Assembly: GCA_965656375.1 (NCBI GenBank)
Contig: CBFHKH010000001.1
Location: 644,291 to 708,290 of the forward strand
Source of the DNA: Minisyncoccia bacterium
Lineage (GTDB): Bacteria > Patescibacteriota > Minisyncoccia > Phycocordibacterales > UBA9973
Direction: 5' to 3'
Length of the DNA: 64,000 nt
This document shows positions 5,792-37,111 of this stretch, in pieces (within the stretch, counting starts at the first letter, position 1; each line of letters starts with the position of its first letter). Both the position numbers and the translations under genes were made by a program. The notes below the pieces were generated by a model. The model worked only from the letters and a program-made list of their open reading frames with translations, was not told where the DNA came from and searched no databases.

Positions 5792-8260
5792 ATGAATAAA
5801 CCACTGATTCAAAAAATAACATCCTTCCTAATTATAGGCCTATTTTTGTTGCAGCTACTTTCTCCATCTTCCTTATATGCTGCACCCCTTAATTATGATA
5901 ATCCGAATAAAAGTGGAAATAACCCTTACCAACTTTCTCTCAAGGGTGTAGTTAGTAGCGGTTTACTTACATCTGTTGTCGGTTGTACTGGGATAGTTGA
6001 TAAAGTTGCCAAAGTTACAACAGATTTTGCTCAAAAACTAGCCGTAAAAAAAGCAAAGTCAAAAGCAACTAGTGCCGAAGCAAAAAGCCATCAGTCTGAT
6101 TCGGTCCCAGTCGTAGACTCTACAAGTATCAAAACCGAAGAACAAGGACACAACGACACACAAACAGATATCGAAAAAGATTCGTATACAGAAAATTGTT
6201 TAAAAGGTATTGCTATAACACTTGCCAAGAATCAGCTAACTGCAATGACAAAATACACCATGAACTGGATCACAACTGGATTCAATGGTGACCCGCTCTA
6301 CGTACGTGATGTAAATTCATATATGGACAGCCTTACGACAGATATCCTTGAGAAAGAAAATGAACTTTTCAAAGATCCAGATAACGCAGATGAATATCCA
6401 TGGGCGCGGAGTTATACACAAGGACAAGTAAATATATATAAATCTGCAAAAGACGCATACGGATCATTACGACAAGATTTAACCAATTACCTCACTCCTG
6501 GTTCGACTCCAGAGAGCTTCGCAAATGACTTTTCTCAAGGAGGATGGAATGGGTGGCTTGCGCTTACCCAGCGCCCTGAGAATAATCCACTTGGTTTTAA
6601 TATAGTAGCGACTGAAAATCTTAATAAACAAAAAAACAACGCAGTAGAAACAGCAAGAGCAGAAATACAAAGAGGCAATGGAGTTCTTGATCAGAAAAAA
6701 TGCGTTGAATATGAAAAGATAACCTTCTCAGGTGCTCGTACCTGTAATGGAGGAATTCCAGAAGATGAACTTATGCCTGGTACGACATGTATTCCTGACA
6801 AACCAAATAAAACTCCTACAAACAACGCGCCACGATGTATCAAATACGAAACTGTTACTCCAGGATCAGTTATCAAATCAAAGATCGATACATATATCAA
6901 CTCACCTGAGCGTCAGATAGAACTCGCTAATACAATTAATAGTGCACTTAATGCTCTTTTTGCTGCACTTATCACGAAATTTGAAGACCAAGGTCTATCA
7001 AGTCTTGGCTCAAAGGTCAACAATTTCTCATCACCAACAATAAGTGGCGGCTTTGGATCTAATCGTCTTTTTGATTCACTCGGAAATCCAATTTCATCGA
7101 CAAATATTTTTAATAATACAAGTAATGATGCAAGTGTTAATCAATCATTTGATATTACAAGAGATCTTGGTAATAAGTACGTCGAGGCACTCAATAGTGG
7201 TTCATGGGATGCTGATACGAATACTCCTGAGATCATTCCTGGAAAGGGTATAAAGCATCAGTATTATACTGTCTCAAAAGCAGGTGATACAAAACTTTTC
7301 CCTGGAACTCATCACTTTACTGTCGGAGAGAAAGTGTACTTTGACGGTACACTATGGAAAGTAGGAGTGCCAAAATACATTATAGGTACAAAAGGAGTCT
7401 TTCAAATACAAAAGGATTACGGAGCGTCAATCGCAAAAGCTGAAACTATTCTTCCACAAGTCATTCCTGCATTGGGTGAACTCGACTATTGTATTCCAGG
7501 TCCAAACCAAAATTGGATGATGACATCTACTGATGCGAAGGATGCATATAGTGATTATTTGAGTGGAGTAACTACCGAATATATACGTGATGTGTATGAT
7601 GAGTGTCCATTTATCGGATGTGACGGTATTCAATTTATCGGGGGATTACTCAATGGGGGACTTGATCACTCATACAATGTTATCTCTCTTCCTGATGAAA
7701 CTGAATACAAGGATTTATTCGATGATGCACGAAATCTCTGGGACAAGATCGTACAAGAAGAATTCTTCTGGATAGCTCGCAATGATATACATATGCGTTA
7801 CACATTCTCTTCAGACCATTGGGCGGTTGACCCGGCATACGTAGACAGACAAGTCGCAAAATGGACTGAGCTTTCGAAAAATGCATGGGCTGAATACATT
7901 ACAAAGGCAAAGGCTCTCTATGGTATCGGCAGCCCAATGCAAAGTGAATTTACATTTAATGGAGATTACAACACCTCCTACCTACCGATGGCTCAGGCAG
8001 GGCTTGATCTTGCAAAAGATATAGTAACAAATGCAAGCGACATCAAAGAAGCTATTGAAACGAATGAAACGAATATTGCTCAATCAAGTGCTACTGTATA
8101 TAAACTCACAACTATCAAAGACAAAGTCAACAAAATCATCCTTGCTGCACAAAAGCGTCGCAAAGATAAGAGAGATGCAGATGGATTAGGAGCTATACCC
8201 CAGATCTGTCTTGATAATGAACAAGTAACCTACATCGAAAATGGTGTACTTAAACGATAA
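5792..8260 (+). CDS. large secreted hypothetical protein (822 aa), T4SS-cluster associated
   Basis: Signal peptide MNKPLIQKITSFLIIGLFLLQLLSPSSLYA; long ORF. Has the size and position of Gram-positive T4SS surface/adhesin proteins, but no motif was recognised. Confidence 0.5.
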   Translation: MNKPLIQKITSFLIIGLFLLQLLSPSSLYAAPLNYDNPNKSGNNPYQLSLKGVVSSGLLTSVVGCTGIVDKVAKVTTDFAQKLAVKKAKSKATSAEAKSHQSDSVPVVDSTSIKTEEQGHNDTQTDIEKDSYTENCLKGIAITLAKNQLTAMTKYTMNWITTGFNGDPLYVRDVNSYMDSLTTDILEKENELFKDPDNADEYPWARSYTQGQVNIYKSAKDAYGSLRQDLTNYLTPGSTPESFANDFSQGGWNGWLALTQRPENNPLGFNIVATENLNKQKNNAVETARAEIQRGNGVLDQKKCVEYEKITFSGARTCNGGIPEDELMPGTTCIPDKPNKTPTNNAPRCIKYETVTPGSVIKSKIDTYINSPERQIELANTINSALNALFAALITKFEDQGLSSLGSKVNNFSSPTISGGFGSNRLFDSLGNPISSTNIFNNTSNDASVNQSFDITRDLGNKYVEALNSGSWDADTNTPEIIPGKGIKHQYYTVSKAGDTKLFPGTHHFTVGEKVYFDGTLWKVGVPKYIIGTKGVFQIQKDYGASIAKAETILPQVIPALGELDYCIPGPNQNWMMTSTDAKDAYSDYLSGVTTEYIRDVYDECPFIGCDGIQFIGGLLNGGLDHSYNVISLPDETEYKDLFDDARNLWDKIVQEEFFWIARNDIHMRYTFSSDHWAVDPAYVDRQVAKWTELSKNAWAEYITKAKALYGIGSPMQSEFTFNGDYNTSYLPMAQAGLDLAKDIVTNASDIKEAIETNETNIAQSSATVYKLTTIKDKVNKIILAAQKRRKDKRDADGLGAIPQICLDNEQVTYIENGVLKR

Positions 8261-8264
8261 TTAT

Positions 8265-9197
8265 ATGGAACATCATCCTAGAAAAACAAAAGCATTCATC
8301 ATAACTTTCATTGCGATACTTATTCTTTTGATCGTTGGATATTTAGTATTCAGAAACACTGGTACTATCTTTGGGATAAAGAGTAGTGGGAATACGAATA
8401 AGATATTTTCTCCACTTCTTGGAACATCTAAACAAAACACAGTGGATGTGAAACCCGTAAATACAGGTGGAGATACTCCAATAAACAATACTTCGACAAC
8501 GTTACCAACAACAAACCTCTCTGTCACAGATCCGAGTGGCATAGCTCCAGGCTCAGTTTCTGCTCCGATAGGTCAAGGTGGAACAACTAATCCAAATGGC
8601 GCGCCGGTTATCACACCACCATTTAACCCGCTCCCAACACCTACAACTGACTGTGTTGATGCAAGCGGTAATCTGATTCAATGTAACAATACTCCTACGA
8701 TCACAAATCCAGAGTGTTCAGACTCTATAGATAATGATAAGGATGGGTTAAGTGACGCAGCTGATTCAAGCTGTCATACGGATTATAATGCTTCGAATAT
8801 GCTTTCGTACGACAAGAATATCAACGATGAATCTCGTTTGCAGCCAATAACTGGAGATACAGAAATATCAATGTGTCCGGATGATCCACTTGTATTTACT
8901 GAAGAAGAAAAAGTTGAACTTGCGACACTACTCCGACAATATTACTTGCTTGCACCAACACTCAAGATTGAAGACGACGTTACTCTTGTAGACTATGACA
9001 ACCAAACAAATGAAGAACTGGTCAAGCAGGCAACTTCGCTTACGAATGATTGTAATGCCCAGAAGGCATCTCCTGGATACACGGGGCCACAGGCAATCAA
9101 AGACAATCCATATTATCAAAATCCAGTGGCAAACAGCGGTGCAAAAGAGTACATACCAGGATACAGCTTGTATGAATTGATGTTCAATATCTGGTAA
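8265..9197 (+). CDS. membrane-anchored Thr/Pro/Cys-rich hypothetical protein
   Basis: N-terminal TM AFIITFIAILILLIVGYLVF, then a T/P-rich linker and a Cys-containing domain. Start taken at the ATG at 8265 after the upstream stop. Confidence 0.45.
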   Translation: MEHHPRKTKAFIITFIAILILLIVGYLVFRNTGTIFGIKSSGNTNKIFSPLLGTSKQNTVDVKPVNTGGDTPINNTSTTLPTTNLSVTDPSGIAPGSVSAPIGQGGTTNPNGAPVITPPFNPLPTPTTDCVDASGNLIQCNNTPTITNPECSDSIDNDKDGLSDAADSSCHTDYNASNMLSYDKNINDESRLQPITGDTEISMCPDDPLVFTEEEKVELATLLRQYYLLAPTLKIEDDVTLVDYDNQTNEELVKQATSLTNDCNAQKASPGYTGPQAIKDNPYYQNPVANSGAKEYIPGYSLYELMFNIW

Positions 9198-9267
9198 GTA
9201 GCTATTTCCTCAGGTACTGGAGAGGAAAAGTACTGGGATTTACTAGGAAAATTGGTATAATACTTGT

Positions 9268-11982
9268 GTGAGCAAAAAAACTCTCCCCCTCATTCTCATA
9301 CTTCTCATCATCGCGCAAATGTTTGTGCCTTTTACTGTAGGACGTGACAAAAACAACATTCCCACAATAAAGAAATCTGTAACAGAAGCAGCAATAATGC
9401 AGGTAGCAGTTGACTATACGAGCACGAGTACCGCTATAGATCTTACATTTAGAATTCATCGAGAAACGTCAGATAATCATGGTGTTTTTTACATGATTAC
9501 AAATAATCCGGGAACGACACTAAATCCTAATAAGGATTTTTCATGTACGATATCAACAGGACAAATCTCTACAGTTATTCCCTGCGACTTGAAAGGTGTC
9601 GTTGAAAATGAAAATGCAGATACAGAGATAACATCAGCAAGCCAAGTGTTTGTTCCTGCAAGTGGATCAACAGCGATGGTTACTGATCGAATAAGTAACA
9701 ATCAATTAACCGCTGCTCCAGAAACAACAGGCAGTGATGGAAAAACATACAAGGATGTAACTATAAAGAAAGTTATAAGCCCACTTACTGCAAATACTAC
9801 GTACTACTTGAATGTCTGGGCGTATAATGGAAATCTGGTACCTGAAGGAATTTCATTCTTCTTAGATAAAAAAATAACAACGTCAGTTGCAGGTCAAACT
9901 AATCAGACACCTACTACAGTCGGAACTGTCGAAACAACAGGCGATGGCATGCCAAGTTGTGTATTTGCGCACCCAATAGATGGAACATTTGTAGGATGTA
10001 TAGCGCAGCTTATATATTACGTAGTATTCGTTCCTACTTCATATATATTTGGACTTGCAGGAATGTTTTTCGATACAACGTTTAATTATTCTATACAAGA
10101 CAAATCGTACAACAATTCATTCGTGGTGGAAGGGTGGGGGATCATACGTGATTTCTGCAACATTTTCTTCATATTCGTACTTCTCTATGTAGCATTCTCT
10201 ACAATACTCGGTCTTGGTCATAGTAAACCAAAGGAGATGATTGTAAATGTAGTAATTATAGGGCTTCTGATCAACTTCAGTCTTTTTACCGCTCAAGTCA
10301 TTATAGATACTTCGAACATTTTAGCTCGAGTCTTTTATAATTCCGACGCAGTCAAAGTCACTAAAGATGGAGTGGATCAAGCAGGTGCAAATGGCGTTAT
10401 ACCGATATCAGCCTCGATAGTGAGTAAGGTTGATCCGCAACAACTTATCATAAATTCGAGTAGAGTTTCTGTCTTAAACAAAGCAACCGGAGAAGAAGCA
10501 AGTGCAGGAAATAAAAATTCCACACTTGGAGTAGGAGGATTTATATTGATAACACTCCTTGCAAGTGCGGTTAACGTTGTAGGATTCATTGTATTTCTCA
10601 TGGTTGGAATTATGCTTGTATCTCGAGTTATCGGACTTTGGTTTGCAATGATCTTTGCTCCGCTTGCCTTCTTCTCATATACCGTACCTCAGATGCAAGG
10701 TATGTCGATGGTGGGTTGGAAACATTGGTGGCCGGAAACAATCAAGCTCGCCTTTCTTGCGCCTATTTTCATATTCTTTCTCTACCTCATCCTCAGATTC
10801 ATAGAGTTAGGATTCGGATTAGGAGATGCGGCAAAAGAATCAGGTATCAACTTTGTCCTTCTTACTATGATTCCGTTTATATTTATAATGGTTCTTCTTT
10901 GGAAAGCAAAAGATGTAGCAAAAGATCTGTCCGGCAAGCTTGGGCAAGGAATAACCGGTGGTATATCTGCAGTGGGAGGTATGGCTCTTGGCGGAGCGGC
11001 ACTTGGAGCTGCATTTGCAGGAAGAAAGCTTATTGGAAGTACCGTAGCTCGAGCATCACGAGGAGATACTCTTTCTCAAAGATATGAAGATCCTACAAAG
11101 AGAGCAAAGATGAATGTACTTCAAAAGAGCTTTGGATACATGGGTTCAAAAGTGGGACTCGGAAAAGTATTTGGTAATACATATGACGCAAAAACTCGAA
11201 CAGTCGATAGTGGTATCGGTGGAGTTTTAAATAAGAAACAAAGAAAAGTGGGTGAAATTGACCATGCTCGACACGAGATGGATGCAATTAAAGAAAAAGC
11301 TGGTCTCAAAGGAGTTGATGATGATAGGATTTCTGGCGTAAATGAACAGAAGATGAAGGATACATATGTCAAAGAGAAGAAATCTATGGTTGAATCGGAA
11401 CTTAGAAAGAATGGTGGAGTGGTTGGCGGACAGAAGGTTGAAAGTGAAAATGAATTCAAGGCAAATAATCGAAATCAACTGGTCACAAAAGCGATGAACG
11501 ATCCAAACAACCTAGAGGCTAATGGTACTCTAAAGGATGAGGCAAAGAAACAGATTGAGAATACTCTCAATGCAAATTATGAAATCTATATTAAACCACA
11601 AGTTGAAGCAAAGGCTGCTCAGGATTATGGTCACCTTCGAGATGAATCGAAAACAAAAGTTAATCCACTCGATAGAACAATCGCTCGGTCAAATACTGCT
11701 TCATATGATGCTCGCAATATCTCACAGATGAAAGCGGATAAACGTGAAGGTATATTTACCAGAATGAGTGCAGGATTGATAGCTGGAATCGCTATGGGGG
11801 TACGTACAGGGCTCAAGAATAGTGGAATCAATCATGGTTCTGGCCAAAGTGACTTCCTTAAGGATATTGGACATACTATTACAGAAGCAATGAAGAGCGC
11901 AAAATTTAATGTGAAAGTAGAAGAAAGTCATGGACATGACGCGGGAGGTGATCATGGGCACGGCGGTGGAGGTCATCACTAA
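9268..11982 (+). CDS. VirB6/TrbL-like polytopic membrane protein with long charged C-terminal domain and His/Gly-rich tail
   Basis: GTG start. N-terminal signal plus ~230-aa extracytoplasmic domain, a central block of at least six hydrophobic helices (aa ~240-560), then a charged K/E-rich domain ending HGHDAGGDHGHGGGGHH. The architecture resembles PrgH/TcpH-type VirB6 proteins. Confidence 0.5.
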   Translation: MSKKTLPLILILLIIAQMFVPFTVGRDKNNIPTIKKSVTEAAIMQVAVDYTSTSTAIDLTFRIHRETSDNHGVFYMITNNPGTTLNPNKDFSCTISTGQISTVIPCDLKGVVENENADTEITSASQVFVPASGSTAMVTDRISNNQLTAAPETTGSDGKTYKDVTIKKVISPLTANTTYYLNVWAYNGNLVPEGISFFLDKKITTSVAGQTNQTPTTVGTVETTGDGMPSCVFAHPIDGTFVGCIAQLIYYVVFVPTSYIFGLAGMFFDTTFNYSIQDKSYNNSFVVEGWGIIRDFCNIFFIFVLLYVAFSTILGLGHSKPKEMIVNVVIIGLLINFSLFTAQVIIDTSNILARVFYNSDAVKVTKDGVDQAGANGVIPISASIVSKVDPQQLIINSSRVSVLNKATGEEASAGNKNSTLGVGGFILITLLASAVNVVGFIVFLMVGIMLVSRVIGLWFAMIFAPLAFFSYTVPQMQGMSMVGWKHWWPETIKLAFLAPIFIFFLYLILRFIELGFGLGDAAKESGINFVLLTMIPFIFIMVLLWKAKDVAKDLSGKLGQGITGGISAVGGMALGGAALGAAFAGRKLIGSTVARASRGDTLSQRYEDPTKRAKMNVLQKSFGYMGSKVGLGKVFGNTYDAKTRTVDSGIGGVLNKKQRKVGEIDHARHEMDAIKEKAGLKGVDDDRISGVNEQKMKDTYVKEKKSMVESELRKNGGVVGGQKVESENEFKANNRNQLVTKAMNDPNNLEANGTLKDEAKKQIENTLNANYEIYIKPQVEAKAAQDYGHLRDESKTKVNPLDRTIARSNTASYDARNISQMKADKREGIFTRMSAGLIAGIAMGVRTGLKNSGINHGSGQSDFLKDIGHTITEAMKSAKFNVKVEESHGHDAGGDHGHGGGGHH

Positions 11983-11992
11983 ATAAGATATT

Positions 11993-13111
11993 ATGGATCA
12001 AACACAATTACAACAACAAATAGCTCTCTATTACTCAAAACTCTCGCCAGAAATGCAGGCGTCATTTTCGAGCATGCAGTGGATGGAATCACTCAGAGAA
12101 ATTAGTAGGATATACAAACTGACTGAAAATCAGATAGTTACACTCGGAACCGAAACAACCCTTGTTTTACTTGGGATAATATCCACAGAAGAATATGAAG
12201 CTACATTGAAAGATGAGATAAAAATAGACGATGCCGGAATGAAATCAATGCTTGCCGAGATTGAATCAAAAATACTCGGTGTAAATCGTTCCAGACTTAG
12301 AGAAGCATTTGAAAAGAATGTAGACGAATTAGGACAAGAAAAGTACGGTGGGGTACAGAAACTCGATGAACGATTCCTCAAGCTTCCGCAAGAAGTACAG
12401 CAAGCAATTAGAGAATCGAACTATCAACCTGTACTCTACAAAATTGCAGAAAAACATACACTTTCCATCAATCATATGGCAGCGCTAGAAGAAGCAACCA
12501 CAAAAGTCATGCTTGGCATGATACATCCCGACAAATATGAACAAGAATTACAATCTACTATCGGCATTCCAAAAGAAGAGATTAGAGAAATTGTCAGTGA
12601 AGTAGATGAAGGAGTTTTAAAAAATATTAAAGAAATACTCAAGTCACATTGGGGAAAACAAGAAATAGCAACTACTGCGGATGATGTTCCGATTCCACCG
12701 TATAAAACATCTTCACTAGAGACTTTTTCAAAGGAATCTGACGCGAAAATATACGAGGCGTCTGGAGTTGAAATAGTTAAAGATAGTAAGCCTATACTTT
12801 CAAAACCCGAAGAAAAGAGCGTAACAGAAAGTGAAAGCGGGGTTTTAAATAGTTCGGGAATCAATATCGTACGAGACATTCCCATTGCTCCTTCTGAACA
12901 CATACTTGCAAACAAAGAAACAGAGAAAAAACTCCTTGAAGGACTCGAGCATCCTGCCGATGTAGCAACAAGTATTATTGGGGATAAATTAAGCGGTGCG
13001 ACTAAAAGTAAAGACACGGTTACTGATTATTCACTACCAAAGCTTGGAAAGGATGTAGCGGTGCCTCTGCCCACAAAACCTCACGATCCATACCACGAAC
13101 CAATTGAATAG
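11993..13111 (+). CDS. hypothetical soluble protein (372 aa) inside T4SS-like cluster
   Basis: ORF with no TM segments or recognisable motifs. Confidence 0.4.
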   Translation: MDQTQLQQQIALYYSKLSPEMQASFSSMQWMESLREISRIYKLTENQIVTLGTETTLVLLGIISTEEYEATLKDEIKIDDAGMKSMLAEIESKILGVNRSRLREAFEKNVDELGQEKYGGVQKLDERFLKLPQEVQQAIRESNYQPVLYKIAEKHTLSINHMAALEEATTKVMLGMIHPDKYEQELQSTIGIPKEEIREIVSEVDEGVLKNIKEILKSHWGKQEIATTADDVPIPPYKTSSLETFSKESDAKIYEASGVEIVKDSKPILSKPEEKSVTESESGVLNSSGINIVRDIPIAPSEHILANKETEKKLLEGLEHPADVATSIIGDKLSGATKSKDTVTDYSLPKLGKDVAVPLPTKPHDPYHEPIE

Positions 13112-13130
13112 TTTGTGATACAATATATAC

Positions 13131-13547
13131 ATGCAGTTTAAGGTCCCACAATTCATTGATATTGAGGATAAGCTTTTCGGACCTTTCACGTTCCGTCAAT
13201 TCGTCTATCTAGTCGGTGGTGCAGGAATGATATTCGTTGTGTACAAGCTTTTGCCGCTCTATATTGGTATTTTTCTCATCATACCAATCGCAGGCCTTTC
13301 TGCGCTTTTGACATTTTACAAGATCAACAACAAGCCTTTTATTTATTATCTCCAGGCAGCAACAAATTACGCCATTTCAAGTAAACTCTATGTATGGAAA
13401 CAACGTCTTGCGAAACATACAGACAATATAAATACTGATGATATTGCTCTTTCTCAAAAAGTTTCTACCTTGCCAGTTATGACAGAGAGTAAACTCAAAG
13501 ATCTTTCATGGAGTCTTGATGTACAGGCAAAAGACGAAAATGAATAG
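13131..13547 (+). CDS. PrgI family / VirB3-like small membrane protein
   Basis: MQFKVPQFIDIEDKLFGPFTFRQFVYLVGGAGMIFV... matches the PrgI-family pattern (vP, K, lt.RQ, G) plus two TM helices. It sits directly upstream of the VirB4 gene, as in Gram-positive T4SS operons. Confidence 0.6.
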   Translation: MQFKVPQFIDIEDKLFGPFTFRQFVYLVGGAGMIFVVYKLLPLYIGIFLIIPIAGLSALLTFYKINNKPFIYYLQAATNYAISSKLYVWKQRLAKHTDNINTDDIALSQKVSTLPVMTESKLKDLSWSLDVQAKDENE

Positions 13548-13573
13548 GTAGTAAGTTGTGATATAATTACATT

Positions 13574-14227
13574 ATGGCAATCAACGCGAGGAGCGCACAA
13601 GAATTCGTACCAATCAAAGAAGTTCGCAATGGCGTCATCGTTCTCAAAGACGGAGGTCTTCGTGCAGTTCTTATTGCCTCATCTATCAATCTTTCTCTCA
13701 AATCAAGCGACGAGCAGACTGCTATTATAAATCAATTCCAGTCATTCTTAAATGGTCTTGATTTTCCAACACAAATCGTTATGCAGTCCCGCAGGCTCGA
13801 TATTCGTCCGTATCTTTTAACACTCGAAGAGAGACTCAAACAACAAAATGAGAAGCTTTTGAAGATTCAGACAAAGGAGTATATAGATTTCATCCGCTCA
13901 TTCACAGATGAGGTTAACATCATGACGAAAACATTCTTTGTCATTGTTCCCTATAGTTCGGCAGTACTTAAATCAAGCGATGGGTTGCTCGAAAAGATTG
14001 TCGGTGGAAATGCCGCTAAAAAGCAGATTGAAGATACGAAGAAAGCTATTGACCTCGCATCATTCGAAGAAAAACGAAGTCAGCTCGATCAGCGCGTTGG
14101 GGTTATTATCGGAGGTCTCGGCGGCATTGGTATTCGCTCAAGTCAGCTCAAGACCGAAGAGATCGTAGAGCTTTTTTATAAGACATTCAATCCAGGAGAT
14201 ATTAGTCAGGGAATTAAATTACAATAA
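13574..14227 (+). CDS. VirB4/PrgJ-like ATPase, N-terminal fragment (217 aa)
   Basis: EFVPIKEVRNGVIVLKDGGLRAVLIASSINLSLKSSDEQTAIINQFQSFLNGLDFPTQIVMQSRRLDIRPYL is the typical N-terminus of Gram-positive VirB4 (CagE_TrbE_VirB family). It ends with TAA 8 nt before the next ORF, in a different frame. Confidence 0.6.
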   Translation: MAINARSAQEFVPIKEVRNGVIVLKDGGLRAVLIASSINLSLKSSDEQTAIINQFQSFLNGLDFPTQIVMQSRRLDIRPYLLTLEERLKQQNEKLLKIQTKEYIDFIRSFTDEVNIMTKTFFVIVPYSSAVLKSSDGLLEKIVGGNAAKKQIEDTKKAIDLASFEEKRSQLDQRVGVIIGGLGGIGIRSSQLKTEEIVELFYKTFNPGDISQGIKLQ

Positions 14228-14235
14228 GAATCAGT

Positions 14236-16074
14236 ATGTCGATATTTTCATCACTATTTGGAGGAGGTAAAAACAAGACAGGACCAAAAAGCTCTGTCAT
14301 GCCGGTACTTCCCGCTGAGATCTATAAAGCTGCAACACTCGAGCTTCAAGATATCATCGCGCCATCAGCATTACAAATAACTCCAAAATCTTTAAACTTG
14401 GGCGATAAAATTGCGCGAACATTTTTCGTTATTTCCTACCCCCGATATCTCTCGGATAACTGGTTCTCGCCGATCATCAACCTTGATAAAGTTTTTGATG
14501 TATCTATATTTGTTCATCCGATCGATACCGCAGAAGTTCTCCATATGTTCCAGAAAAAAGTTGCCGAGGTGCAGAGTCAAATCTCTATTCGCGAATCAAA
14601 AGGTCTTGTTCGAGATCCAATGCTTGATACTGCGTATCAAGATTTAGAAGGACTTCGAGATAATCTTATGCAAGCTCAAGAGAAAATGTTTGATGTTGGA
14701 CTCTATATCACCGTATATGCCGATACAGAGAACGATCTGTTCAAAATTGAGAGTGAGATAAAATCCCTTTTAGAATCAAAGCTTATTTACCTAAAACCAG
14801 CCTTATTTCAGCAAGACGAAGCATTTAAAAGTGTTATTCCACTTGGTACAGATATACTCGGTATTCATCAGAAGCTCAATACAGAACCACTGTCTTCGCT
14901 CTTTCCGTTCGTATCATTTGACCTGACATCAGATAAAGGAATACTCTACGGGGTTAATCGTCACAACTCGAGCTTGATAATATTTGATCGATTCTCACTC
15001 CCGAACTACAATTCGATAACATTTGCCACATCCGGTGCAGGAAAATCATACGCGACAAAGCTCGAAATAATCCGCACACTCATGTTTGACACTGAGGTCA
15101 TCGTTATCGACCCTGAGCGTGAATATGAATACCTCTCTGAAGCAGTTGGCGGGCGATATTTCAATATATCTCTTTCGTCAGATCACCATATCAATCCGTT
15201 TGATTTGCCTATACCGTCATCTGATGAAACGGGAGCCGATGTTCTTCGCGCTAACACCATAAACCTGGTTGGACTATTTCGCATTATGCTTGGAGGTCTC
15301 ACTCCAGAAGAGGATTCTATAATCGATAGTGCTATCACTGAAACATACGCACTTAAAGACATTACGGCAGAATCTAATTTTGCAAACATTGAGCCTCCAC
15401 TTCTCTCTGATTTTGAAATGGTACTCGCTGGTATGGAGGGGAGTGGATCACTCATCCAACGTCTTGCAAAATTCACTCACGGATCATGGGCATCATTTCT
15501 AAACCAGGCTTCAAACGTAGATATCAATCGTAAATTCGTCGTGTTCTCTGTTCGCGACATGGAAGACGACCTAAAACCTGTTGCTATGTATATAGTCACA
15601 CACTATATATGGAATGCTGTTCGAAAGAATATAAAGAAACGATTACTTGTCGTCGATGAGGCCTGGTGGATGATGAAATCCGACGATACAGCTTCATTCC
15701 TTTATTCTATTGCTAAGCGCGGGCGTAAGTACTATCTCGGCCTTGCAACCATAACCCAAGACGTAGGAGACTTTATGAAGAGTCCGTATGGTGTGCCAAT
15801 TGTCACAAACTCTTCTATACAATTACTACTCAAACAATCTCCATCAACAGTTGATGTGCTCCAAAAAACTTTTAATCTGACAGATGAGGAAAAATACCTG
15901 CTTCTCGAAGCAAATGTCGGAGAGGGTATATTCTTTGCCGGCCTCAAGCACGTCGCGGTAAAGACTATTGCTTCATATACAGAAGATCAGATCATTACAT
16001 CTGATCCATCGCAAATACTCGCTATCAAGAAAGCAAAGGATGAATTGGCGGCATCTTCTGGGACAGGACGCTAA
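14236..16074 (+). CDS. VirB4/PrgJ-like ATPase, C-terminal portion incl. Walker A/B (612 aa)
   Basis: GDKIARTFFVISYPRYL region; Walker A TSGAGKSYATKLEII; Walker B LLVVDEAWWMM; LATITQDVGDF. Together with the 217-aa fragment this makes ~829 aa, the usual VirB4 length. Confidence 0.75.
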   Translation: MSIFSSLFGGGKNKTGPKSSVMPVLPAEIYKAATLELQDIIAPSALQITPKSLNLGDKIARTFFVISYPRYLSDNWFSPIINLDKVFDVSIFVHPIDTAEVLHMFQKKVAEVQSQISIRESKGLVRDPMLDTAYQDLEGLRDNLMQAQEKMFDVGLYITVYADTENDLFKIESEIKSLLESKLIYLKPALFQQDEAFKSVIPLGTDILGIHQKLNTEPLSSLFPFVSFDLTSDKGILYGVNRHNSSLIIFDRFSLPNYNSITFATSGAGKSYATKLEIIRTLMFDTEVIVIDPEREYEYLSEAVGGRYFNISLSSDHHINPFDLPIPSSDETGADVLRANTINLVGLFRIMLGGLTPEEDSIIDSAITETYALKDITAESNFANIEPPLLSDFEMVLAGMEGSGSLIQRLAKFTHGSWASFLNQASNVDINRKFVVFSVRDMEDDLKPVAMYIVTHYIWNAVRKNIKKRLLVVDEAWWMMKSDDTASFLYSIAKRGRKYYLGLATITQDVGDFMKSPYGVPIVTNSSIQLLLKQSPSTVDVLQKTFNLTDEEKYLLLEANVGEGIFFAGLKHVAVKTIASYTEDQIITSDPSQILAIKKAKDELAASSGTGR

Positions 16075-16133
16075 GAAGGTATTTCCGTGATTACCTACTT
16101 TCTAGTTATAGACAGATACTATATAATAGAGAT

Positions 16134-17129
16134 GTGATTACACAACGAGCAAAAATAGCACTAAGTGTACTTTTCTTGATAAGTATCCTTTACGTAGGTA
16201 AGGAAACTTGGGCAGCAAACGAAATTAATCCAGGTGAAGGAGATATATCAGTCACTACTATTCCAGAGAATCCGGAACCATATCAGGATGTCACAATACA
16301 GCTTTCAAGCTATGCGACAGATCTTAATAGAGCAATGATACAGTGGCAAAGCGGGGCGCGTGTCGTACTCTCAGGATATGGAAAGACAAGTTATTCATTC
16401 AAAACACAGGGTCCAAACACTGCAACTATACTTACTGTCATTATCGCAATACCAGGTACTATCGACAATATCACGAAACAGATATTCATTAATCCGTCAG
16501 AAGTTGAACTTATTTGGGAGGGAGTTGATTCATATACTCCGCCATTTTACAGAGGTAAATCATTTCCGACAGCTGAAAGCCGTATAAAGGTAGTAGCTAT
16601 TCCAAATACCACTACAATCAAACAAGGGAAGGGTTCAGTTTCGTATATATGGAAGTATGGTGATCGCACAGCACAAAGCGCGTCTGGCTACAATAAAGAT
16701 TCATTTGTTTATCAAAATAGTGTACTTAATGATATAGATAAGATCACAGTCACAGCAGAATCTGTGGATGGAGGATACACTGCAACAAAAAGTATACAAA
16801 TACCGATAAGAGAACCAAAACTCCTTTTCTATAAAAAGTCTCCAACTGAAGGGGTATTGTATAATCAAGCACTCGAGTCTGGATCATTTATTGAGGAAGA
16901 GGAAGCAACGTTTGTTGCAGTACCATATTTCCTTGCACTTTCTGGTAATGAGAATAATTTCAATTACACATGGAAGATAAATGGAAAAGAGATCGAAACT
17001 CCATCGAAAAAAACAGAACTCACTATTCGTCCAGCTGCTCGTGGGGGATATGCCACTATTGATGTACTTTTTGAGAACCTAGATACAATTTATCAGAGTG
17101 TGAAAGGTAGTCTTAAAATAACCCTCTAA
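16134..17129 (+). CDS. secreted hypothetical protein
   Basis: GTG start with a TATATAAT box just upstream. Signal peptide ALSVLFLISILYVGKETWA. Confidence 0.45.
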   Translation: MITQRAKIALSVLFLISILYVGKETWAANEINPGEGDISVTTIPENPEPYQDVTIQLSSYATDLNRAMIQWQSGARVVLSGYGKTSYSFKTQGPNTATILTVIIAIPGTIDNITKQIFINPSEVELIWEGVDSYTPPFYRGKSFPTAESRIKVVAIPNTTTIKQGKGSVSYIWKYGDRTAQSASGYNKDSFVYQNSVLNDIDKITVTAESVDGGYTATKSIQIPIREPKLLFYKKSPTEGVLYNQALESGSFIEEEEATFVAVPYFLALSGNENNFNYTWKINGKEIETPSKKTELTIRPAARGGYATIDVLFENLDTIYQSVKGSLKITL

Positions 17130-17130
17130 T

Positions 17131-18579
17131 ATGAAAAGATTTTCATCATTGCTAGTCCTCACACTTCTTGCAATAAACACTTTTGTGCCATTTGGTATAT
17201 CACTATCTTCTAATTTTTTACCAGAGATAGTGAAAAATACAGTTTCTGCTGATACCTGCACGATACTCTCAGCAGAATGGAGTCCGGCTGGTGAACAGAG
17301 CAAAAGTACTTTCTATAGAGACGGAAAGACGGCAGCAAATATCGTAGTGGGGACAAAGGGTTGTGTCGACCAACCAGGAATAACGCTTACTGTTTTTGAA
17401 TCGGATAGCTGTCCTCAGAATTGTGATGATGCATTGATTGATTCGAATCTATTGCGAAGACAGATAAAGGTTCCGAGTGATAATTTCACTATACGCATTA
17501 GATTAGGAGAAGAAGAATGCGAAGCTGGATTATCCGGAAGCATCGGCTATGACTGTGATTTATTCTTCTATATAAGACAAGGTGATACCACGCTCTATAA
17601 TTCATCTGGGAAAACCAATGGTGACATCTACTATGAATGTGACGGGCTTTGTTTTGACAATGCTGAATTATTGAAAATCTATGCCCAGGGATCAGACAGC
17701 AACCCAACCACTGTAGATATCAATACGAGCGCAATAAACGAAGATGTATATACTCTTCTTGCTCCTATCGGTAACATAAACTGTGTAAGTGATACTGGGA
17801 TGGATAAGGATGGTAATCAGAACTGCATTGTGGGCAATGGAATCGGATACTATCTGAATGCAATTTTCCTCCTTGCTATCGGTCTTTGTGGAGCGCTCGC
17901 AGTTATTATGATCATCATAAGTGGTATTCAGTACATGGGTGATGAATCAGTATTCGGTAAAACTGAAGCAAAGAGCAAGATATTTGCTGCAATACTTGGT
18001 CTTTTGATCGCACTTGGTTCATATGCATTGCTTCGAACTATTAATCCTGATCTCACTGGTTCAGACGGAGTATCGATAAGCCAAGTTGAGGCTGAAATAG
18101 ATGATCAACCGATACTCTCTGATGAAAATACAGTTGCTCCAATAGGAACAAATATTGCTAAGTGTCCGGAAGGAGTGGAACCAACACAAACTGCAACTGT
18201 AAAATTCATTACTTGTAAATCGATTTCAGTAAAGTTTAAACAAATGATTTCTGATGCATTAGCAGCAGGAATGAAAATAACTGGGGGAGGATTCAGAACC
18301 CGTGCTGAGCAAGTTGCTCTGTATCAAAAGAATTGTGGAGGTGGTACAAGAAAATGTAATCCACCTACAGCAAAACCAGGAAGTTCTATGCACGAAAGTG
18401 GGCTCGCATTTGATTTGAAATGCGATGGAAATTTAATCAATTTTGACGGAAATCAAAGAAAATTCCCAATTGTTACATCTACAAAAAAATGTTTTGATTG
18501 GTTAGCCGCAAATGCCTATAAATACGGACTACAAAATTTTAAAAGAGAAAATTGGCACTGGTCTACAAACGGTCACTAA
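17131..18579 (+). CDS. secreted Cys-rich domain + VirB2/TrbC-like TM hairpin + C-terminal peptidase M15 (VanY/CwlK-type) peptidoglycan hydrolase
   Basis: Signal peptide. Two hydrophobic helices separated by a short charged loop (LNAIFLLAIGLCGALAVIMIIISGIQYMGDESVFGKTEAKSKIFAAILGLLIALGSYALL). C-terminal SSMHESGLAFDL (SxHxxGxAxD) and ENWHW (ExxH) zinc-peptidase motifs. Confidence 0.6.
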   Translation: MKRFSSLLVLTLLAINTFVPFGISLSSNFLPEIVKNTVSADTCTILSAEWSPAGEQSKSTFYRDGKTAANIVVGTKGCVDQPGITLTVFESDSCPQNCDDALIDSNLLRRQIKVPSDNFTIRIRLGEEECEAGLSGSIGYDCDLFFYIRQGDTTLYNSSGKTNGDIYYECDGLCFDNAELLKIYAQGSDSNPTTVDINTSAINEDVYTLLAPIGNINCVSDTGMDKDGNQNCIVGNGIGYYLNAIFLLAIGLCGALAVIMIIISGIQYMGDESVFGKTEAKSKIFAAILGLLIALGSYALLRTINPDLTGSDGVSISQVEAEIDDQPILSDENTVAPIGTNIAKCPEGVEPTQTATVKFITCKSISVKFKQMISDALAAGMKITGGGFRTRAEQVALYQKNCGGGTRKCNPPTAKPGSSMHESGLAFDLKCDGNLINFDGNQRKFPIVTSTKKCFDWLAANAYKYGLQNFKRENWHWSTNGH

Positions 18580-18589
18580 TAAATAATAT

Positions 18590-19927
18590 ATGCCTAGAAA
18601 AACAAAAATTATCTTCATAATCGTGTTTGCAGTCATCGGGATGGGAACGTTGAGTGCATATTTCTACATTAATCGTGCAAAAACAACCGGATCAACTGAT
18701 GGTGCTTCATCTGGCTACAAACCGTTCTTTGGTAGTAGTAATACACCCGATACAGAAACAACATCACAAGATCAAACAGGAAACACCGATACCAATGTAA
18801 ATACAGAATCAGCCGAAACCATAAATGCGACACCATCAGGTTCTTCTCGATTCAGTCAGATTGCTAATTTCGCAGTTGCAGGAGCGGTATTTTTCGAAGA
18901 TACCCGACCAATACCCGAAGATGAAGTAGCCCTACCGGGAGGTGAAGAGCCAGCTAAAGAACCTTCTCCAGTGAAAGCTAAAACAAAGACAGCTCCTGTG
19001 AAACCACAAGCACCTAAATTTGAAATAGTACCGAGTCTTCGGTATGTAGAGCGCGCTACAGGGCATATACATCAGATGTATCTGGACACAAAAGTAACTG
19101 GACAAGTCTCTAATGGAACAATACCAACAGTATATGAAGCTCTCTTTGATGGTAAAGCAAACTCGCTTTTGTATCGCTATATCGGAGATGATGGACGGAG
19201 TATTACAAGTTTCTTAGCAACACTCGGAAGTGCAAATGGTGAATTTTTGCCGGCAGATATCCTCGATGTAAGCGTTTCTCCCGATAAAAGCAAATTCTTT
19301 TATTTGACAAAGACTGCTCAAGGGGTAGTCGGCACAACTCGGTCATTTAGAGATACGAAAAAAACCCAAATATTTAGCTCTTCTCTTACAGAACTTCTTT
19401 CAGAGTGGGTAACCGACCAGAAGGTATTTTTAACGACAAAAGCTGATTCCTCGGTAAACGGAAGTGTATTTAGTCTAAATACTGGGACTGGAGTCCTTAC
19501 AAAGATCCTAGGAGGGGTAAAGGGGCTTACAACCCTTGCAAACAACGATGGGTCATTCGTCCTTTACAGTGTCTCAACAAATAGTGGTCCGAGGTTAGGT
19601 ATTTTTGATGTTAAAAATCATACCTCAAAAGACCTCAATATAAATGGGCTTCCAGAAAAATGTATTTGGAAGGATACTTTTATTTATTGCGCTATTCCTA
19701 ACAATGCTACAGGTACCGGATATCCAGAACTATGGTACCGAGGACAAGTATCATTTACTGATCATTTTGTTAAGATAAATACAACAACATATGAAAGCAC
19801 TACGTTGGCGGATTCAGCATACGAGATACCTATCGATGGTACTCATCTTTTCTTGGATGATACAGATACGACTCTCTTCTTCATAAACAAGAAAGACTCC
19901 ACTCTTTGGAGTCTTAACCTAAAGTAA
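18590..19927 (+). CDS. membrane-anchored hypothetical protein, probable beta-propeller-like extracytoplasmic domain
   Basis: N-terminal TM IIFIIVFAVIGMGTLSAYFYI. Last gene of the cluster, convergent with jag. Confidence 0.4.
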   Translation: MPRKTKIIFIIVFAVIGMGTLSAYFYINRAKTTGSTDGASSGYKPFFGSSNTPDTETTSQDQTGNTDTNVNTESAETINATPSGSSRFSQIANFAVAGAVFFEDTRPIPEDEVALPGGEEPAKEPSPVKAKTKTAPVKPQAPKFEIVPSLRYVERATGHIHQMYLDTKVTGQVSNGTIPTVYEALFDGKANSLLYRYIGDDGRSITSFLATLGSANGEFLPADILDVSVSPDKSKFFYLTKTAQGVVGTTRSFRDTKKTQIFSSSLTELLSEWVTDQKVFLTTKADSSVNGSVFSLNTGTGVLTKILGGVKGLTTLANNDGSFVLYSVSTNSGPRLGIFDVKNHTSKDLNINGLPEKCIWKDTFIYCAIPNNATGTGYPELWYRGQVSFTDHFVKINTTTYESTTLADSAYEIPIDGTHLFLDDTDTTLFFINKKDSTLWSLNLK

Positions 19928-19945: not shown

Positions 19946-20404
19946 TTATTCAGCGATATATTTTATAACTACCCGTCGATTTGGACCGGATCCTTCAGAT
20001 TCAGTTTTAATATCTTTTGCTCCTTCAAGGAACATATGAACAATACGACGCTCATATGCAGGCATTGGGTCTATTTCAATGCTTGATTTAAAGTATCGTG
20101 CTCGCTCAGCCATCATATGTGCAATGGTTTTTAGATTATCAAAACGCTTTTTCTGGTATTCGTTCACATCAATAAAAAGCTTTGCTGATTGCTCCTCGCC
20201 AACTGTTTTCTCAACCATCTTTCTAACAAGATGATTGAGTGAGCGAAGTGTCTCGCCATCGCGACCGATCATAAATCGTGAGTCTGGAGTACTAATCATG
20301 CACCAGAGCATACCGTTTTCATCCGAGAATTCACATGTTGAAATAGTACACCCGGTTTGTGTAAATATTTCTTCTATGATCTTTTTAACAATATCTTTAT
20401 CCAT
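19946..20404 (-). CDS. jag: Jag/KhpB RNA-binding protein (KH + R3H)
   Basis: R3H-like PMPAYERRIVHMFL...GSGPNRRVVIKY, located directly downstream of yidC. Confidence 0.75.
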   Translation of the reverse strand: MDKDIVKKIIEEIFTQTGCTISTCEFSDENGMLWCMISTPDSRFMIGRDGETLRSLNHLVRKMVEKTVGEEQSAKLFIDVNEYQKKRFDNLKTIAHMMAERARYFKSSIEIDPMPAYERRIVHMFLEGAKDIKTESEGSGPNRRVVIKYIAE

Positions 20405-20407
20405 ATA

Positions 20408-21166
20408 TTATATGACTATTTTAGCAAGTGAGCGTCTGACATACCATTCTTGAATTATCGTGAATATATTACTTGTAATCCAATAGAGTGCAACTGCAGC
20501 CGATATTTGATACGCAATGAATGCAATAAAGACAGGAAGAATATATCGAACATTCATTTGCATACTATCTGAAAGCTGCTCTTGGAATGTTTTCGGTTCA
20601 GGTGTTTCCATTTCTTTTACTACTTCAACTTTTGGCTTTATTGGGGTTGCAAGATAGCCTTGGATAAATTGTGTTATTCCAGCAACAATAGCAAGAATAA
20701 TACTTTTGCCATGAACATCGAATACTCCGAGGAAATTTGTATGAACAGTAAGTGGCATCTTTACAAAAGAGTATAGTGGACCTGCATCAAGAGAAAGGCC
20801 TTTGTAAAACACGTAATAGAGAGCAAAGATGACTGGAAGTTGCAACAGTACTACCAGACAGCCAGAGAATGGATTAACACCGTATTTTTTATATAATTCA
20901 AAGGTTTTCTTTGCTTGCTCTTCTTTATTTGGAAATTCTTTCTTGACCCGTTTTAGTTCAGGTTCAATCTTTTTCATAAGAATTTGACTCTTGATTGATT
21001 TCTTTGTAAGCGGGAAGAGGATGAACTTGACGATAATCGTAAGTATGATAATAGCAAACCCGACATCACCCCAGGTAATGTGGTGTACTATAAAAATAAG
21101 GGCATTATAGATTGGTTGGTAAAAAAGAGTATTCCATAGTGTGTGCATTGGTCTATTGTAGCTCAA
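20408..21166 (-). CDS. yidC: membrane protein insertase YidC (short, Gram-positive/Oxa1-like form)
   Basis: Multi-TM protein with the conserved IILTIIVKFILFPLTKKS helix-1 region, inside the rnpA-yidD-yidC-jag synteny. Confidence 0.8.
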   Translation of the reverse strand: MSYNRPMHTLWNTLFYQPIYNALIFIVHHITWGDVGFAIIILTIIVKFILFPLTKKSIKSQILMKKIEPELKRVKKEFPNKEEQAKKTFELYKKYGVNPFSGCLVVLLQLPVIFALYYVFYKGLSLDAGPLYSFVKMPLTVHTNFLGVFDVHGKSIILAIVAGITQFIQGYLATPIKPKVEVVKEMETPEPKTFQEQLSDSMQMNVRYILPVFIAFIAYQISAAVALYWITSNIFTIIQEWYVRRSLAKIVI

Positions 21167-21190
21167 AAATGCCCGTAATCAAAGAGGCGC

Positions 21191-21397
21191 TTATGTGAGG
21201 GGATCGTACCGATTTTTCTGCCATGGGTGGCATCGAGAGATCCGTCTTAGCCCGTAATAGACTCCCGTAAGAAGACCATATTTATTAATCGCTTCTTTTG
21301 TATATTCTGAACAAGTAGGTAAGAATACACATGATGCGTGAGACCTAAGTGGGGTTTTCTGATAGAGGAATATAAGCCAAAGAACAAACTTTTTCAT
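21191..21397 (-). CDS. yidD: membrane protein insertion efficiency factor YidD
   Basis: LIFLYQKTPLRSHASCVFLPTCSEYTKEAINKYGLLTGVYYGLRRISRCHPW. Start taken at the internal Met MKKFVLW; the track ORF extends to 21424, overlapping rnpA. Confidence 0.8.
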   Translation of the reverse strand: MKKFVLWLIFLYQKTPLRSHASCVFLPTCSEYTKEAINKYGLLTGVYYGLRRISRCHPWQKNRYDPLT

Positions 21398-21401
21398 AGA
21401 G

Positions 21402-21722
21402 TTATAGTATTCGAGCTTTCGCAAGAATGTATGCGATATCTTTTTTCATGTCCTCTCTGTGGGCATTTTTCCCTTCTTTTTTGTAAAAAAATATACCGGC
21501 AGCAGTTTTAATAGGGAACGAACGGAGGATTGCATACCCACGCCTTCTGAGTAAATTCCTCTCTACCGCCTTTTTAGCAAGGTTTTTAGGGACTACGAAA
21601 GCATAGTGAGGGGTGGTATGATTGTCGTATCGAAAAATAAAAAACGAGCCAGAGATACTTTTCCCGTGCTTGAGTAAGCTCTGGAATAGCTCTTTGGTAA
21701 CCCGCTTTTTCTTTGGAACCAT
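21402..21722 (-). CDS. rnpA: ribonuclease P protein component
   Basis: Basic ~106-aa protein with AVERNLLRRR; position between rpmH and yidD. Confidence 0.8.
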   Translation of the reverse strand: MVPKKKRVTKELFQSLLKHGKSISGSFFIFRYDNHTTPHYAFVVPKNLAKKAVERNLLRRRGYAILRSFPIKTAAGIFFYKKEGKNAHREDMKKDIAYILAKARIL

Positions 21723-21990: not shown

Positions 21991-23352
21991 ATGTCCACTA
22001 TGAACACAAACGAGCTCTGGAATAACTGTCTTTCAGAAATTGAATCAGGAATATCAAAAGCCAATTTTACTACATGGTTTAAAAATACATCAATAGTAAA
22101 AGAGGATAATGGTACTGTCTATATCGGTGTCCCAAATGAATTTGTAAAAGATTGGCTCTATAATAAATTTCACAAGCTTATACTCAAAACAATAATTACT
22201 CACGAAGAGAGTATCCGAGGAATCGAATATATAATCTCTAAGCACGAGCACACAGCACAACGACAGAACGAAGAAAAGAATATGCCTCTTGTACAAGTAA
22301 ACAAAGAGCTTCCGCTTAATGATCTCTATATAAATAAAGACGATAATCTAAACCCTAAGTATAATTTTAATTCTTTTGTTGTAGGGCCATTCAACGAACT
22401 TGCCTACGCTGTCGCTCAAGCGATTATAACTAACCCTGGTCAGAACTATAATCCATTTTTTATTTATGGGGGTACTGGCCTTGGAAAAACTCATATTATT
22501 CAAGCGATTGGCAATACAATTAAAACTAAACATCCATCAAAAAAGATCTATTATGTGAGTCTTGAACGATTCGCGATTGATTACATAAATTCGATACAAA
22601 ACAAGAATCCTAACTCTTTCAAAGAAAAATATCGAAAATACGACGTGATTATTATGGATGACATCCAATTCATCTCAGGCAAAGATAAGACCCAGGAAGA
22701 ACTTTTCCATCTTTTCAATACACTCTATGAGAGTAATAAGCAAATAGTGTTTTCTTCAGATAAGCATCCGAATTTTATCCCTGGTCTTGAAGATAGACTT
22801 AAATCTCGTTTCGCCTCTGGAATGATCGTGCAAATCGTAGAGCCTGATTATGAATCTCGAGTCGCTATTATAAAAGCAAAGTTCGAAACAACAAACTCTA
22901 TTGTAGATAAAGATGTGATAGCATATCTCGCTGAATCACTCGAAGGTAATATTCGAGAGCTCGAAGGAAGCTTAAATACTGTTATCGTCCAATCTCAATT
23001 AAAAGGTAAAACTCTTTCAGTCGCTGAGGTTAAAACTCTTATAAAAAATAACATAAAACCCAAAAAGACTGTTGCAATTAAGGATATTGTTCGTATTATC
23101 GCACTCCAATATGGAATCTCAGAAGATGTTATTTACGAGAAAACACGCAGAAGAGAGATTGTCCGAGCTCGCCAAGTAGCTATGTATATCTTGCGTGAAG
23201 ATTTCAATATCTCATATCCACTCATAGGACAGAAAATGGGTGGACGGGATCACACAACCGTCATACACTCTCATCTAAAAATACGAGATGACCTTAAAAC
23301 AGATCCGTCATTACTCCAAGAAATAGAAAAAATTAGAATTATGTTTAAATAG
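21991..23352 (+). CDS. dnaA: chromosomal replication initiator protein DnaA
   Basis: AAA+ Walker A GGTGLGKTHIIQAIGN, the FNSFVVGPFNELAYA box and a C-terminal DNA-binding domain (VAMYILRE...IGQKMGGRDHTTVIH). Confidence 0.92.
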   Translation: MSTMNTNELWNNCLSEIESGISKANFTTWFKNTSIVKEDNGTVYIGVPNEFVKDWLYNKFHKLILKTIITHEESIRGIEYIISKHEHTAQRQNEEKNMPLVQVNKELPLNDLYINKDDNLNPKYNFNSFVVGPFNELAYAVAQAIITNPGQNYNPFFIYGGTGLGKTHIIQAIGNTIKTKHPSKKIYYVSLERFAIDYINSIQNKNPNSFKEKYRKYDVIIMDDIQFISGKDKTQEELFHLFNTLYESNKQIVFSSDKHPNFIPGLEDRLKSRFASGMIVQIVEPDYESRVAIIKAKFETTNSIVDKDVIAYLAESLEGNIRELEGSLNTVIVQSQLKGKTLSVAEVKTLIKNNIKPKKTVAIKDIVRIIALQYGISEDVIYEKTRRREIVRARQVAMYILREDFNISYPLIGQKMGGRDHTTVIHSHLKIRDDLKTDPSLLQEIEKIRIMFK

Positions 23353-23558
23353 TGTGGAAAAGGTATGTATAAAAAAGTGGAGAAATGTGGAAAATATAGA
23401 ACAGTGTATAAAAATTAAAAATTATGCACAGAAGTTGTTTTTATAAGAAAATAAAATTAATAAAAATATATTTATAAAACAATGACTAGATCACAATCCA
23501 CATATTCACATCACTAATAGTAATAGTAATGTATTAATAGATAATTAGTAACATATAT
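23353..23558. promoter_or_regulatory. putative oriC (dnaA-dnaN intergenic, AT-rich, multiple DnaA-box-like 9-mers)
   Basis: TGTGGAAAA occurs twice and AATCCACAT once; each matches the TTATCCACA consensus at 7/9 positions. A very AT-rich tract (ataaaattaataaaaatatatttataaaa) could be a DNA-unwinding element. Confidence 0.55.
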
Positions 23559-36527: not shown

Positions 36528-36667
36528 ATTGTTTACGATGGATATGAATCCCGTTAGAGATTTGTTGTTAGGAACTTGTGATATAGTGTAAAGATAGATA
36601 TGGTTGATATATTACTTATGGCAATTAATAAGATACGGAAGACCAAAGGCTTCCTATCTCTAACGGG

Positions 36668-37111
36668 ATGAAAATGACTCTCGAAACAATTCCAGATATC
36701 GCACGATCTCTCCTAGAGAAAGCGATCGATATACAAACTGATGAAAGTACTCTTATTACTCTAGAGGGTGATCTTGGTGCTGGTAAAACTACGCTTACGC
36801 AACAGATTGCACGAGAGCTCGGTGTGAAAGCAAATCTTATCTCACCGACGTTTGTGATTATGAAAAAGTATGACCTGCCTGAGCAGGCAGGAGCAAGACA
36901 TAAGAAATTCAAGTACCTAGTTCATATTGATGTGTATCGACTCAGTAAAAGTGAAGAGTTACTCAAACTCGGATGGCTAGAAATTGTAAAAGAAAAAGAT
37001 ACCCTTATTATTCTCGAATGGCCGGAAAATGTGCCAGAATGTATCCCTACAAATGCTCTTAAAGTAAAGCTTACTCACCAAGATGACACTACTCGGGCGA
37101 TAGAATTTTAG
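36668..37111 (+). CDS. tsaE: tRNA threonylcarbamoyladenosine biosynthesis protein TsaE (YjeE)
   Basis: LEGDLGAGKTTLTQQIARELGV...SPTFVIMKKY P-loop signature. Contains an in-frame copy of the GC-rich palindrome (LPEQAG). Confidence 0.75.
   Translation: MKMTLETIPDIARSLLEKAIDIQTDESTLITLEGDLGAGKTTLTQQIARELGVKANLISPTFVIMKKYDLPEQAGARHKKFKYLVHIDVYRLSKSEELLKLGWLEIVKEKDTLIILEWPENVPECIPTNALKVKLTHQDDTTRAIEF
36874..36895. repeat. GC-rich palindromic element copy 1 (GACCTGCCTGAGCAGGCAGGAG), in-frame within tsaE
   Basis: cctgcctgAgcaggcagg differs by one central base from the palindrome at 51035 and 55222. Confidence 0.6.

Follow-up and report, generated by a model that had tools for sequence, protein, structure and literature searches.

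We analysed a 64,000-nt stretch of DNA (the window) from a Minisyncoccia bacterium (assembly GCA_965656375.1, contig CBFHKH010000001.1, positions 644,291 to 708,290 of the forward strand), in which the type IV secretion ATPase VirB4 is encoded by two adjacent open reading frames (ORFs). These are almost certainly two genuine, separately translated cistrons, one for a TrsD-like protein (ORF1) and one for a VirB4 ATPase truncated at its N-terminus (ORF2), and the split is a natural one. Judged by sequence comparison, trsD and the N-truncated virB4 are the products of a natural, ancient and conserved domain fission. The setting is a chromosomal type IV secretion cluster of the monoderm (mating-pair formation, MPF-FATA) type in a member of the Paceibacteria class of Patescibacteria. 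The pair is laid out as follows:

13574..14227, plus strand: ORF1, trsD-like, 217 aa, a separate protein homologous to the N-proximal ~200 residues of VirB4
14228..14235, no strand: intercistronic spacer of 8 nt, GAATCAGT
14236..16074, plus strand: ORF2, virB4 ATPase without the N-proximal domain, 612 aa

ORF1 ends with a TAA at 14225-14227, and the ATG of ORF2 lies 8 nt past this stop in a different frame, which is shut upstream by a TAA at 14215-14217. A preliminary description had reported this geometry, the Walker motifs of ORF2 and the relation of ORF1 to the N-terminal part of VirB4, and all of these were confirmed. It had considered four explanations (a natural split, recoding, a pseudogenising frameshift or an assembly error) and proposed aligning both ORFs to single-chain VirB4 homologues and comparing the position of the split among orthologues. 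We did both.

ORF2 matches the NCBIfam profile NF045971 (VirB4-like CD1110) with 370.6 bits, above the curated cut-off of 325, over positions 183-732 of 752. It carries a Walker A motif, TSGAGKSY, at residues 265-272 (15028-15051; GAGKS at 267-271), and a Walker B motif, LLVVDEAW, at residues 470-477 (15643-15666; VVDEAW at 472-477). Residues 233-588 match PDB entry 4AG5, a solved VirB4 C-terminal domain, with an E-value of 2e-36, and other Pfam matches are to P-loop_TraG, AAA_10 and DUF87. At the sequence level, the homology to VirB4 is far beyond chance. What the ORF2 polypeptide itself does not contain is the N-proximal domain, as ORF2 begins at position 183 of NF045971. Positions 2-136 of this profile are matched by ORF1.

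For tiling, two rare fused relatives, P0242 and P0218, served as single-chain references. On P0242 (797 aa), residues 1-212 of ORF1 align to residues 1-214 with 40% identity, and residues 37-602 of ORF2 align to residues 230-796 with 55% identity, leaving a 15-residue linker between the two matches. On P0218 (898 aa), ORF1 residues 7-207 align to residues 13-209 and ORF2 residues 25-597 to residues 318-892, with a low-complexity linker of ~108 residues between the ORF1-like and ORF2-like parts. ORF1 and ORF2 therefore adjoin, without overlap, within a single VirB4 architecture, and the cut falls in the linker between its domains. ORF2 begins just past the N-proximal module, at the place where the fused relatives have a disordered linker. 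The P0242 cluster consists of three proteins from metagenome-assembled genomes (MAGs) of Candidatus Colwellbacteria, so fused forms occur inside Patescibacteria. The VirB4 N-terminal domain named in the R388 structure paper spans TrwK residues 15-400 (PMC9259494). Of that domain, ORF1 represents the N-proximal part alone, and ORF2 would retain the rest of it together with the ATPase domain.

The split is shared widely. We scanned one genome per GTDB species and obtained 80 loci, of which 79 could be scored at the junction (L023 was excluded from this scoring). An ORF2 orthologue adjoins ORF1 in all 80 species loci, L023 included. In all 79 scorable loci the ORF1 stop falls at the aligned position (TAA in 70, TAG in five and TGA in four), and the ORF2 alignment starts at the equivalent position; the codon there is ATG in 77, while in L029 and L080 the ATG of ORF2 lies two codons up- or downstream. 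The spacer between trsD and virB4 is most often 1 nt long, with extremes of -4 nt (an ATGA overlap) and 288 nt, and the relative frame of the two ORFs is 0, +1 and +2 in 24, 36 and 19 loci, respectively. The termini created by the split are themselves conserved: ORF1 ends in ...FYKTFNPGDISQGIKLQ directly before its stop, and ORF2 starts with MGIFSSLFG..., after which the orthologues have a short variable segment and then VMPVLPSEIYKAATLELQDIIAPSAL.

Among 5.8 billion proteins searched, 7041 are homologues of ORF1. Every one of the best 120 is 215-218 aa long, with 80-93% identity, and those with a named source come from Patescibacteria, Paceibacterota or Nomurabacteria MAGs. An exhaustive HMMER search with ORF1 against 1.84 billion cluster representatives (clusters at 50% identity) gave 2396 hits, of which we inspected the 150 best, with identities as low as about 36%. 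Among these 150, 96 are 190-260 aa long, and ORF2-like sequence is present in two only, P0218 and P0242. Another 28 are 300-450 aa long with disordered C-terminal tails rich in P, Q, T and A. We considered these 300-450-aa representatives as truncated fused proteins and rejected the idea, given zero similarity to ORF2 in any of them.

The identity of ORF1 was examined with profiles, structure prediction and substitution rates. In addition to its match to the CD1110 profile, ORF1 aligns to positions 102-233 of the NCBIfam VirB4_plasma profile (E 1.1e-10), and the TrsD/TraD profile NF041427 (201 positions) is matched over its positions 13-143 by ORF1 residues 6-126 (E 1.6e-8). At 217 aa it is a stand-alone homologue of the roughly 200-residue VirB4 N-terminus, and its gene lies directly 5' of a virB4-type ATPase gene. 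Using hmmscan against a local copy of Pfam-A, no family was found for ORF1 up to an E-value of 10; the protein database assigns Pfam PF26593.2 to all 120 close homologues (P0001-P0120), a model that the local copy probably lacks or that does not score here. A sequence search with ORF1 against PDB chains returned chance hits only. An AlphaFold2 model built from a 46-sequence alignment (mean predicted local distance difference test score, pLDDT, 69; predicted template modelling score, pTM, 0.57) combines alpha and beta structure in its N-terminal part and contains a long helix, and the first eleven Foldseek hits of this model against the PDB are all R388 TrwK/VirB4 chains. The modelled fold is taken as consistent with the sequence evidence and no more. 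Across 39 gap-free comparisons, nonsynonymous divergence (dN) of ORF1 is 0.09-0.17 and synonymous sites are saturated; because of this saturation, synonymous divergence (dS) by the NG86 method was not computable for most pairs. ORF1 is under purifying selection.

Immediately 5' of the pair is a gene for a small membrane protein, and both lie within a longer run of genes:

13131..13547, plus strand: prgI/virB3-like small membrane protein, 138 aa, immediately 5' of the ORF1/ORF2 pair
5792..19927, plus strand: putative type IV secretion cluster, a tightly packed same-strand run around the pair, with outer limits that are inferred

The 13131-13547 product matches Pfam PF12666 (PrgI) with an E-value of 1.2e-9 and 39.1 bits against a 27-bit cut-off, so that a PrgI/VirB3-type protein is encoded beside VirB4; its match to TcpE is weak.

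In the R388 machine, only the six central VirB4 subunits of twelve bind VirB3, and they do so via the N-terminal domain. By analogy, TrsD would bind the VirB4 hexamer non-covalently and would provide the surface that the VirB3 subunit wraps around in the solved R388 structure, in which TrwM envelops TrwK (PDB 7O41/8RTB). It may then be a detachable module that docks the ATPase hexamer onto the PrgI/VirB3-containing membrane translocon, a role that the gene order prgI-trsD-virB4 suggests. With a spacer this short (usually 1-8 nt, in some loci an ATGA overlap), TrsD and VirB4 would tend to be translated together. There is also a slight chance that the division is functionally exploited and not neutral, through a separate stoichiometry of TrsD and/or through a variable disordered tail that adapts TrsD, lineage by lineage, to the repurposed and relaxase-poor secretion system on which Patescibacteria depend for epibiotic growth. 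If so, the occasional re-fusion in Ca. Colwellbacteria and the conserved split termini would mark a docking interface.

Several observations weigh against parts of this picture. ORF1 scores 34.6 bits against the NF041427 cut-off of 200, which makes it a distant relation of plasmid TrsD proteins and keeps it outside the curated family. Its structural similarity to TrwK is weak, with E-values of about 0.02-0.1, probabilities of 0.5-0.9 and a template modelling (TM) score of about 0.35, from a model with a pLDDT of 69. That TrsD physically binds VirB4 and PrgI is inferred. Ten orthologous loci have spacers of 119-288 nt, so tight translational coupling is not obligatory. The start of ORF2 lacks a Shine-Dalgarno motif, and this is uninformative on coupling because, of 44 long ORFs across the window, only five are preceded by such a motif; as an argument for coupling it was rejected, the motif being rare throughout the window.

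Among the alternatives, the least unlikely is that ORF1 is an independent accessory protein of VirB4 N-terminus ancestry, for example in regulation or substrate recruitment, that does not complete the ATPase. It could draw on Gracilibacteria, in which most TrsD homologues are not beside virB4 (PMC12102498), and on the 100-200-aa disordered C-terminal tails of many representatives, which would be superfluous for a simple domain. However, the segment absent from ORF2 is exactly what ORF1 supplies, the Ca. Colwellbacteria fusions within Patescibacteria join both parts by a linker alone, trsD and virB4 remain neighbours throughout the 80 loci, and the pair follows prgI/virB3, a gene for the protein that in R388 contacts this part of VirB4. 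We regard this explanation as improbable.

Translation of a full-length VirB4 by programmed ribosomal frameshifting or stop-codon readthrough is suggested by the short gap and the A/T-rich junction, and readthrough is formally possible in the 24 orthologues that have both ORFs in one frame. Recoding would, however, need a conserved frame relation and a conserved slippery site, and here the frame relation is not conserved: the frames divide 24/36/19, with spacer lengths anywhere between -4 and 288 nt. The spacer carries an insert in ten loci, three of these inserts coding for a GIY-YIG-like ORF, and ORF2 always has its own conserved ATG and N-terminal peptide, MGIFSS. The chance that recoding joins the two products is negligible. 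Disruption of a single 829-aa virB4, by an indel from assembly or sequencing or by a pseudogenising frameshift of recent date, might be read from two adjacent ORFs in different frames with an A/T-rich stretch between them, and from the existence of the rare fused homologues P0242 and P0218, but it is next to impossible given a boundary common to all 79 usable loci, which come from different species and assemblies and have unlike spacer lengths, all three relative frames (including 24 loci in frame yet still stopped), the uniform 215-218-aa length of the best 120 homologues, the purifying selection on ORF1 and the conserved termini. The disruption is not private to this genome and constraint is not relaxed. 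The shared boundary and the varying frame relation therefore exclude an artefactual indel, recent pseudogenisation and programmed frameshifting. Of the four explanations in the preliminary description, the natural split stands and the other three fall. Its tiling and orthologue comparisons both came out on the side of the split (residues 1-214 and 230-796 of the fused 797-aa homologue; the same place in every usable species locus), and its remark that the pieces could only be joined by a frameshift is moot, as the products of ORF1 and ORF2 stay unjoined. That the split is something odd, as it had implied, is unsupported, since TrsD beside VirB4 is the normal arrangement in Patescibacteria and has been published (PMC12102498).

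The arrangement of trsD and virB4 is already known from Patescibacteria and from monoderm conjugation systems. Quinonero-Coronel et al. (2025, Microb Genom, PMC12102498) describe TrsD as a remote homologue of the VirB4 N-terminus and as the most abundant type IV secretion system (T4SS) component in Patescibacteria, with 2,272 homologues by the T4SS_trsD profile of CONJScan/MacSyFinder, 1,664 of them associated with virB4. Outside Patescibacteria, they report TrsD as confined to the MPF-FATA subclass with pGO1 as prototype, its function unassigned, and they list a TrsD homologue beside virB4 as essential in Ca. Southlakia epibionticum. The pair in the window agrees with theirs in taxon (its close relatives are Paceibacteria/Nomurabacteria MAGs), in gene content (prgI/virB3, trsD and virB4, with TrsD adjoining virB4) and in its chromosomal site near dnaA, dnaN and rnpA, and we see no substantive difference from the published pair. 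The passages searched contain no statement that the patescibacterial VirB4 is without the TrsD segment, and no fused forms. Relative to them, the explicit tiling on VirB4 and the Colwellbacteria fusion are a small clarification, not a new finding. The main text of Guglielmini 2014 does not name TrsD, and the statement of TrsD homology rests on PMC12102498, which cites it; a review of nomenclature from 2025 (PMC12857230) contains no mention of TrsD or of a split VirB4.

Compared via profile NF041427, the pGO1-type TrsD/TraD is likewise a small, ~200-aa stand-alone homologue of the VirB4 N-terminus. Unlike it, ORF1 matches that profile remotely (34.6 vs. 200 bits), ORF2 is closest to the CD1110 family and not to a staphylococcal ATPase, and the present system is chromosomal. 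In this comparison, no relaxase was seen near the ORF1/ORF2 pair, no search having been aimed at relaxases. With the single-chain monoderm VirB4 proteins (CD1110, NF045971; Mbov_0397, NF045975), ORF1 and ORF2 share the Walker A and B motifs and together cover the whole profile. Unlike in those proteins, the chain is divided in the linker past the N-proximal domain, and ORF2 has its own conserved N-terminal peptide and short variable stretch.

Split pairs outside Patescibacteria were found by tblastn against plasmids. Pontibacillus plasmid NZ_CP062975 has a 274-aa gene overlapping a 621-aa CD1110-family VirB4, and Sulfobacillus pL15 (NC_025041) has a 194-aa protein and a 607-aa TraC; in both of these Firmicutes pairs the genes overlap by a few nucleotides. 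Halobacterium noricense plasmid NZ_CP089470 has a 367-aa protein and an 838-aa 'transfer complex protein', a partner longer than ORF2. The order of the Pontibacillus cluster resembles that of the window (pilin-like, large protein, small protein, TrsD-like, VirB4, peptidase). Unlike the pair in the window, all three are plasmid-borne, with 26-32% identity to ORF1.

For annotation, the trsD/virB4 junction should not be flagged as a frameshifted virB4, and 'TrsD-like (VirB4 N-domain protein)' is a suitable name for the 217-aa 'hypothetical protein' encoded 5' of virB4 in Patescibacteria. Here nature has cleanly separated a domain from the only type IV secretion ATPase that is ubiquitous, within a system that is reported as essential for epibiotic growth, and the fission therefore marks where the N-proximal docking module is separable from the motor. 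The split site could help in the design of constructs for structural work on secretion systems of monoderms and the candidate phyla radiation (CPR).

The genes of the 5792-19927 run are spaced by 1-59 nt. The ORFs at 5792-8260, 9268-11982, 11993-13111, 16134-17129 and 18590-19927 match nothing in Pfam or NCBIfam; that these five act in the translocon, as VirB6-like proteins or otherwise, is a plausible guess. The 482-aa protein encoded at 17131-18579 has a weak T4SS_pilin segment (residues 241-294, under the Pfam cut-off) and a VanY/LdcB-type peptidase domain in its C-terminal part, and may be a cell-wall hydrolase of the secretion cluster. Right after the cluster, rnpA, yidC and R3H (jag-like) genes occupy 19946-21722 on the minus strand, followed by dnaA and dnaN at 21991-24656 on the plus strand. 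The prgI-trsD-virB4 cluster is chromosomal and lies about 2 kb from this region, which fits the position that PMC12102498 gives for many Patescibacteria, with clusters often near dnaA, dnaN and rnpA.

Shine-Dalgarno-like motifs are scarce window-wide, as the count above indicates. Several genes have a TATACT-like -10 box within ~5-15 nt upstream of the ATG (e.g., ATGs at 1588, 48166, 59096 and 61482), so their mRNAs may be leaderless or have very short leaders.

A small element bounded by inverted repeats, GGTCCCGTTAGAAG ... CTTCTAACGGG, is present in the trsD-virB4 spacer of 10 of the 79 orthologous loci and ends at the virB4 ATG. The copies are:

L029 6649-6934: long form
L033 6655-6942: long form
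L038 6655-6938: long form
L009 1863-1984: short form
L012 2441-2566: short form
L027 5282-5400: short form
L042 788-913: short form
L044 6655-6776: short form
L046 6117-6242: short form
L073 6664-6789: short form

The long form (284-288 nt) codes for a GIY-YIG-like ORF of ~87 aa (MFYYTYILKSKKDG.YTGST.DLRKRL.QHN...). The short form (119-126 nt) is without an ORF and has the appearance of a hairpin derivative resembling a miniature inverted-repeat transposable element (MITE). The window has its own copy of the short element at 36548-36669 (122 nt, ATCCCGTTAGAG ... CTCTAACGGGAT), located between a separate inverted-repeat hairpin, which comes after the ORF at 34496-36484, and the ATG (36668) of a TsaE-family gene. 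Like the copies in the orthologous trsD-virB4 loci, it ends directly at a start codon.

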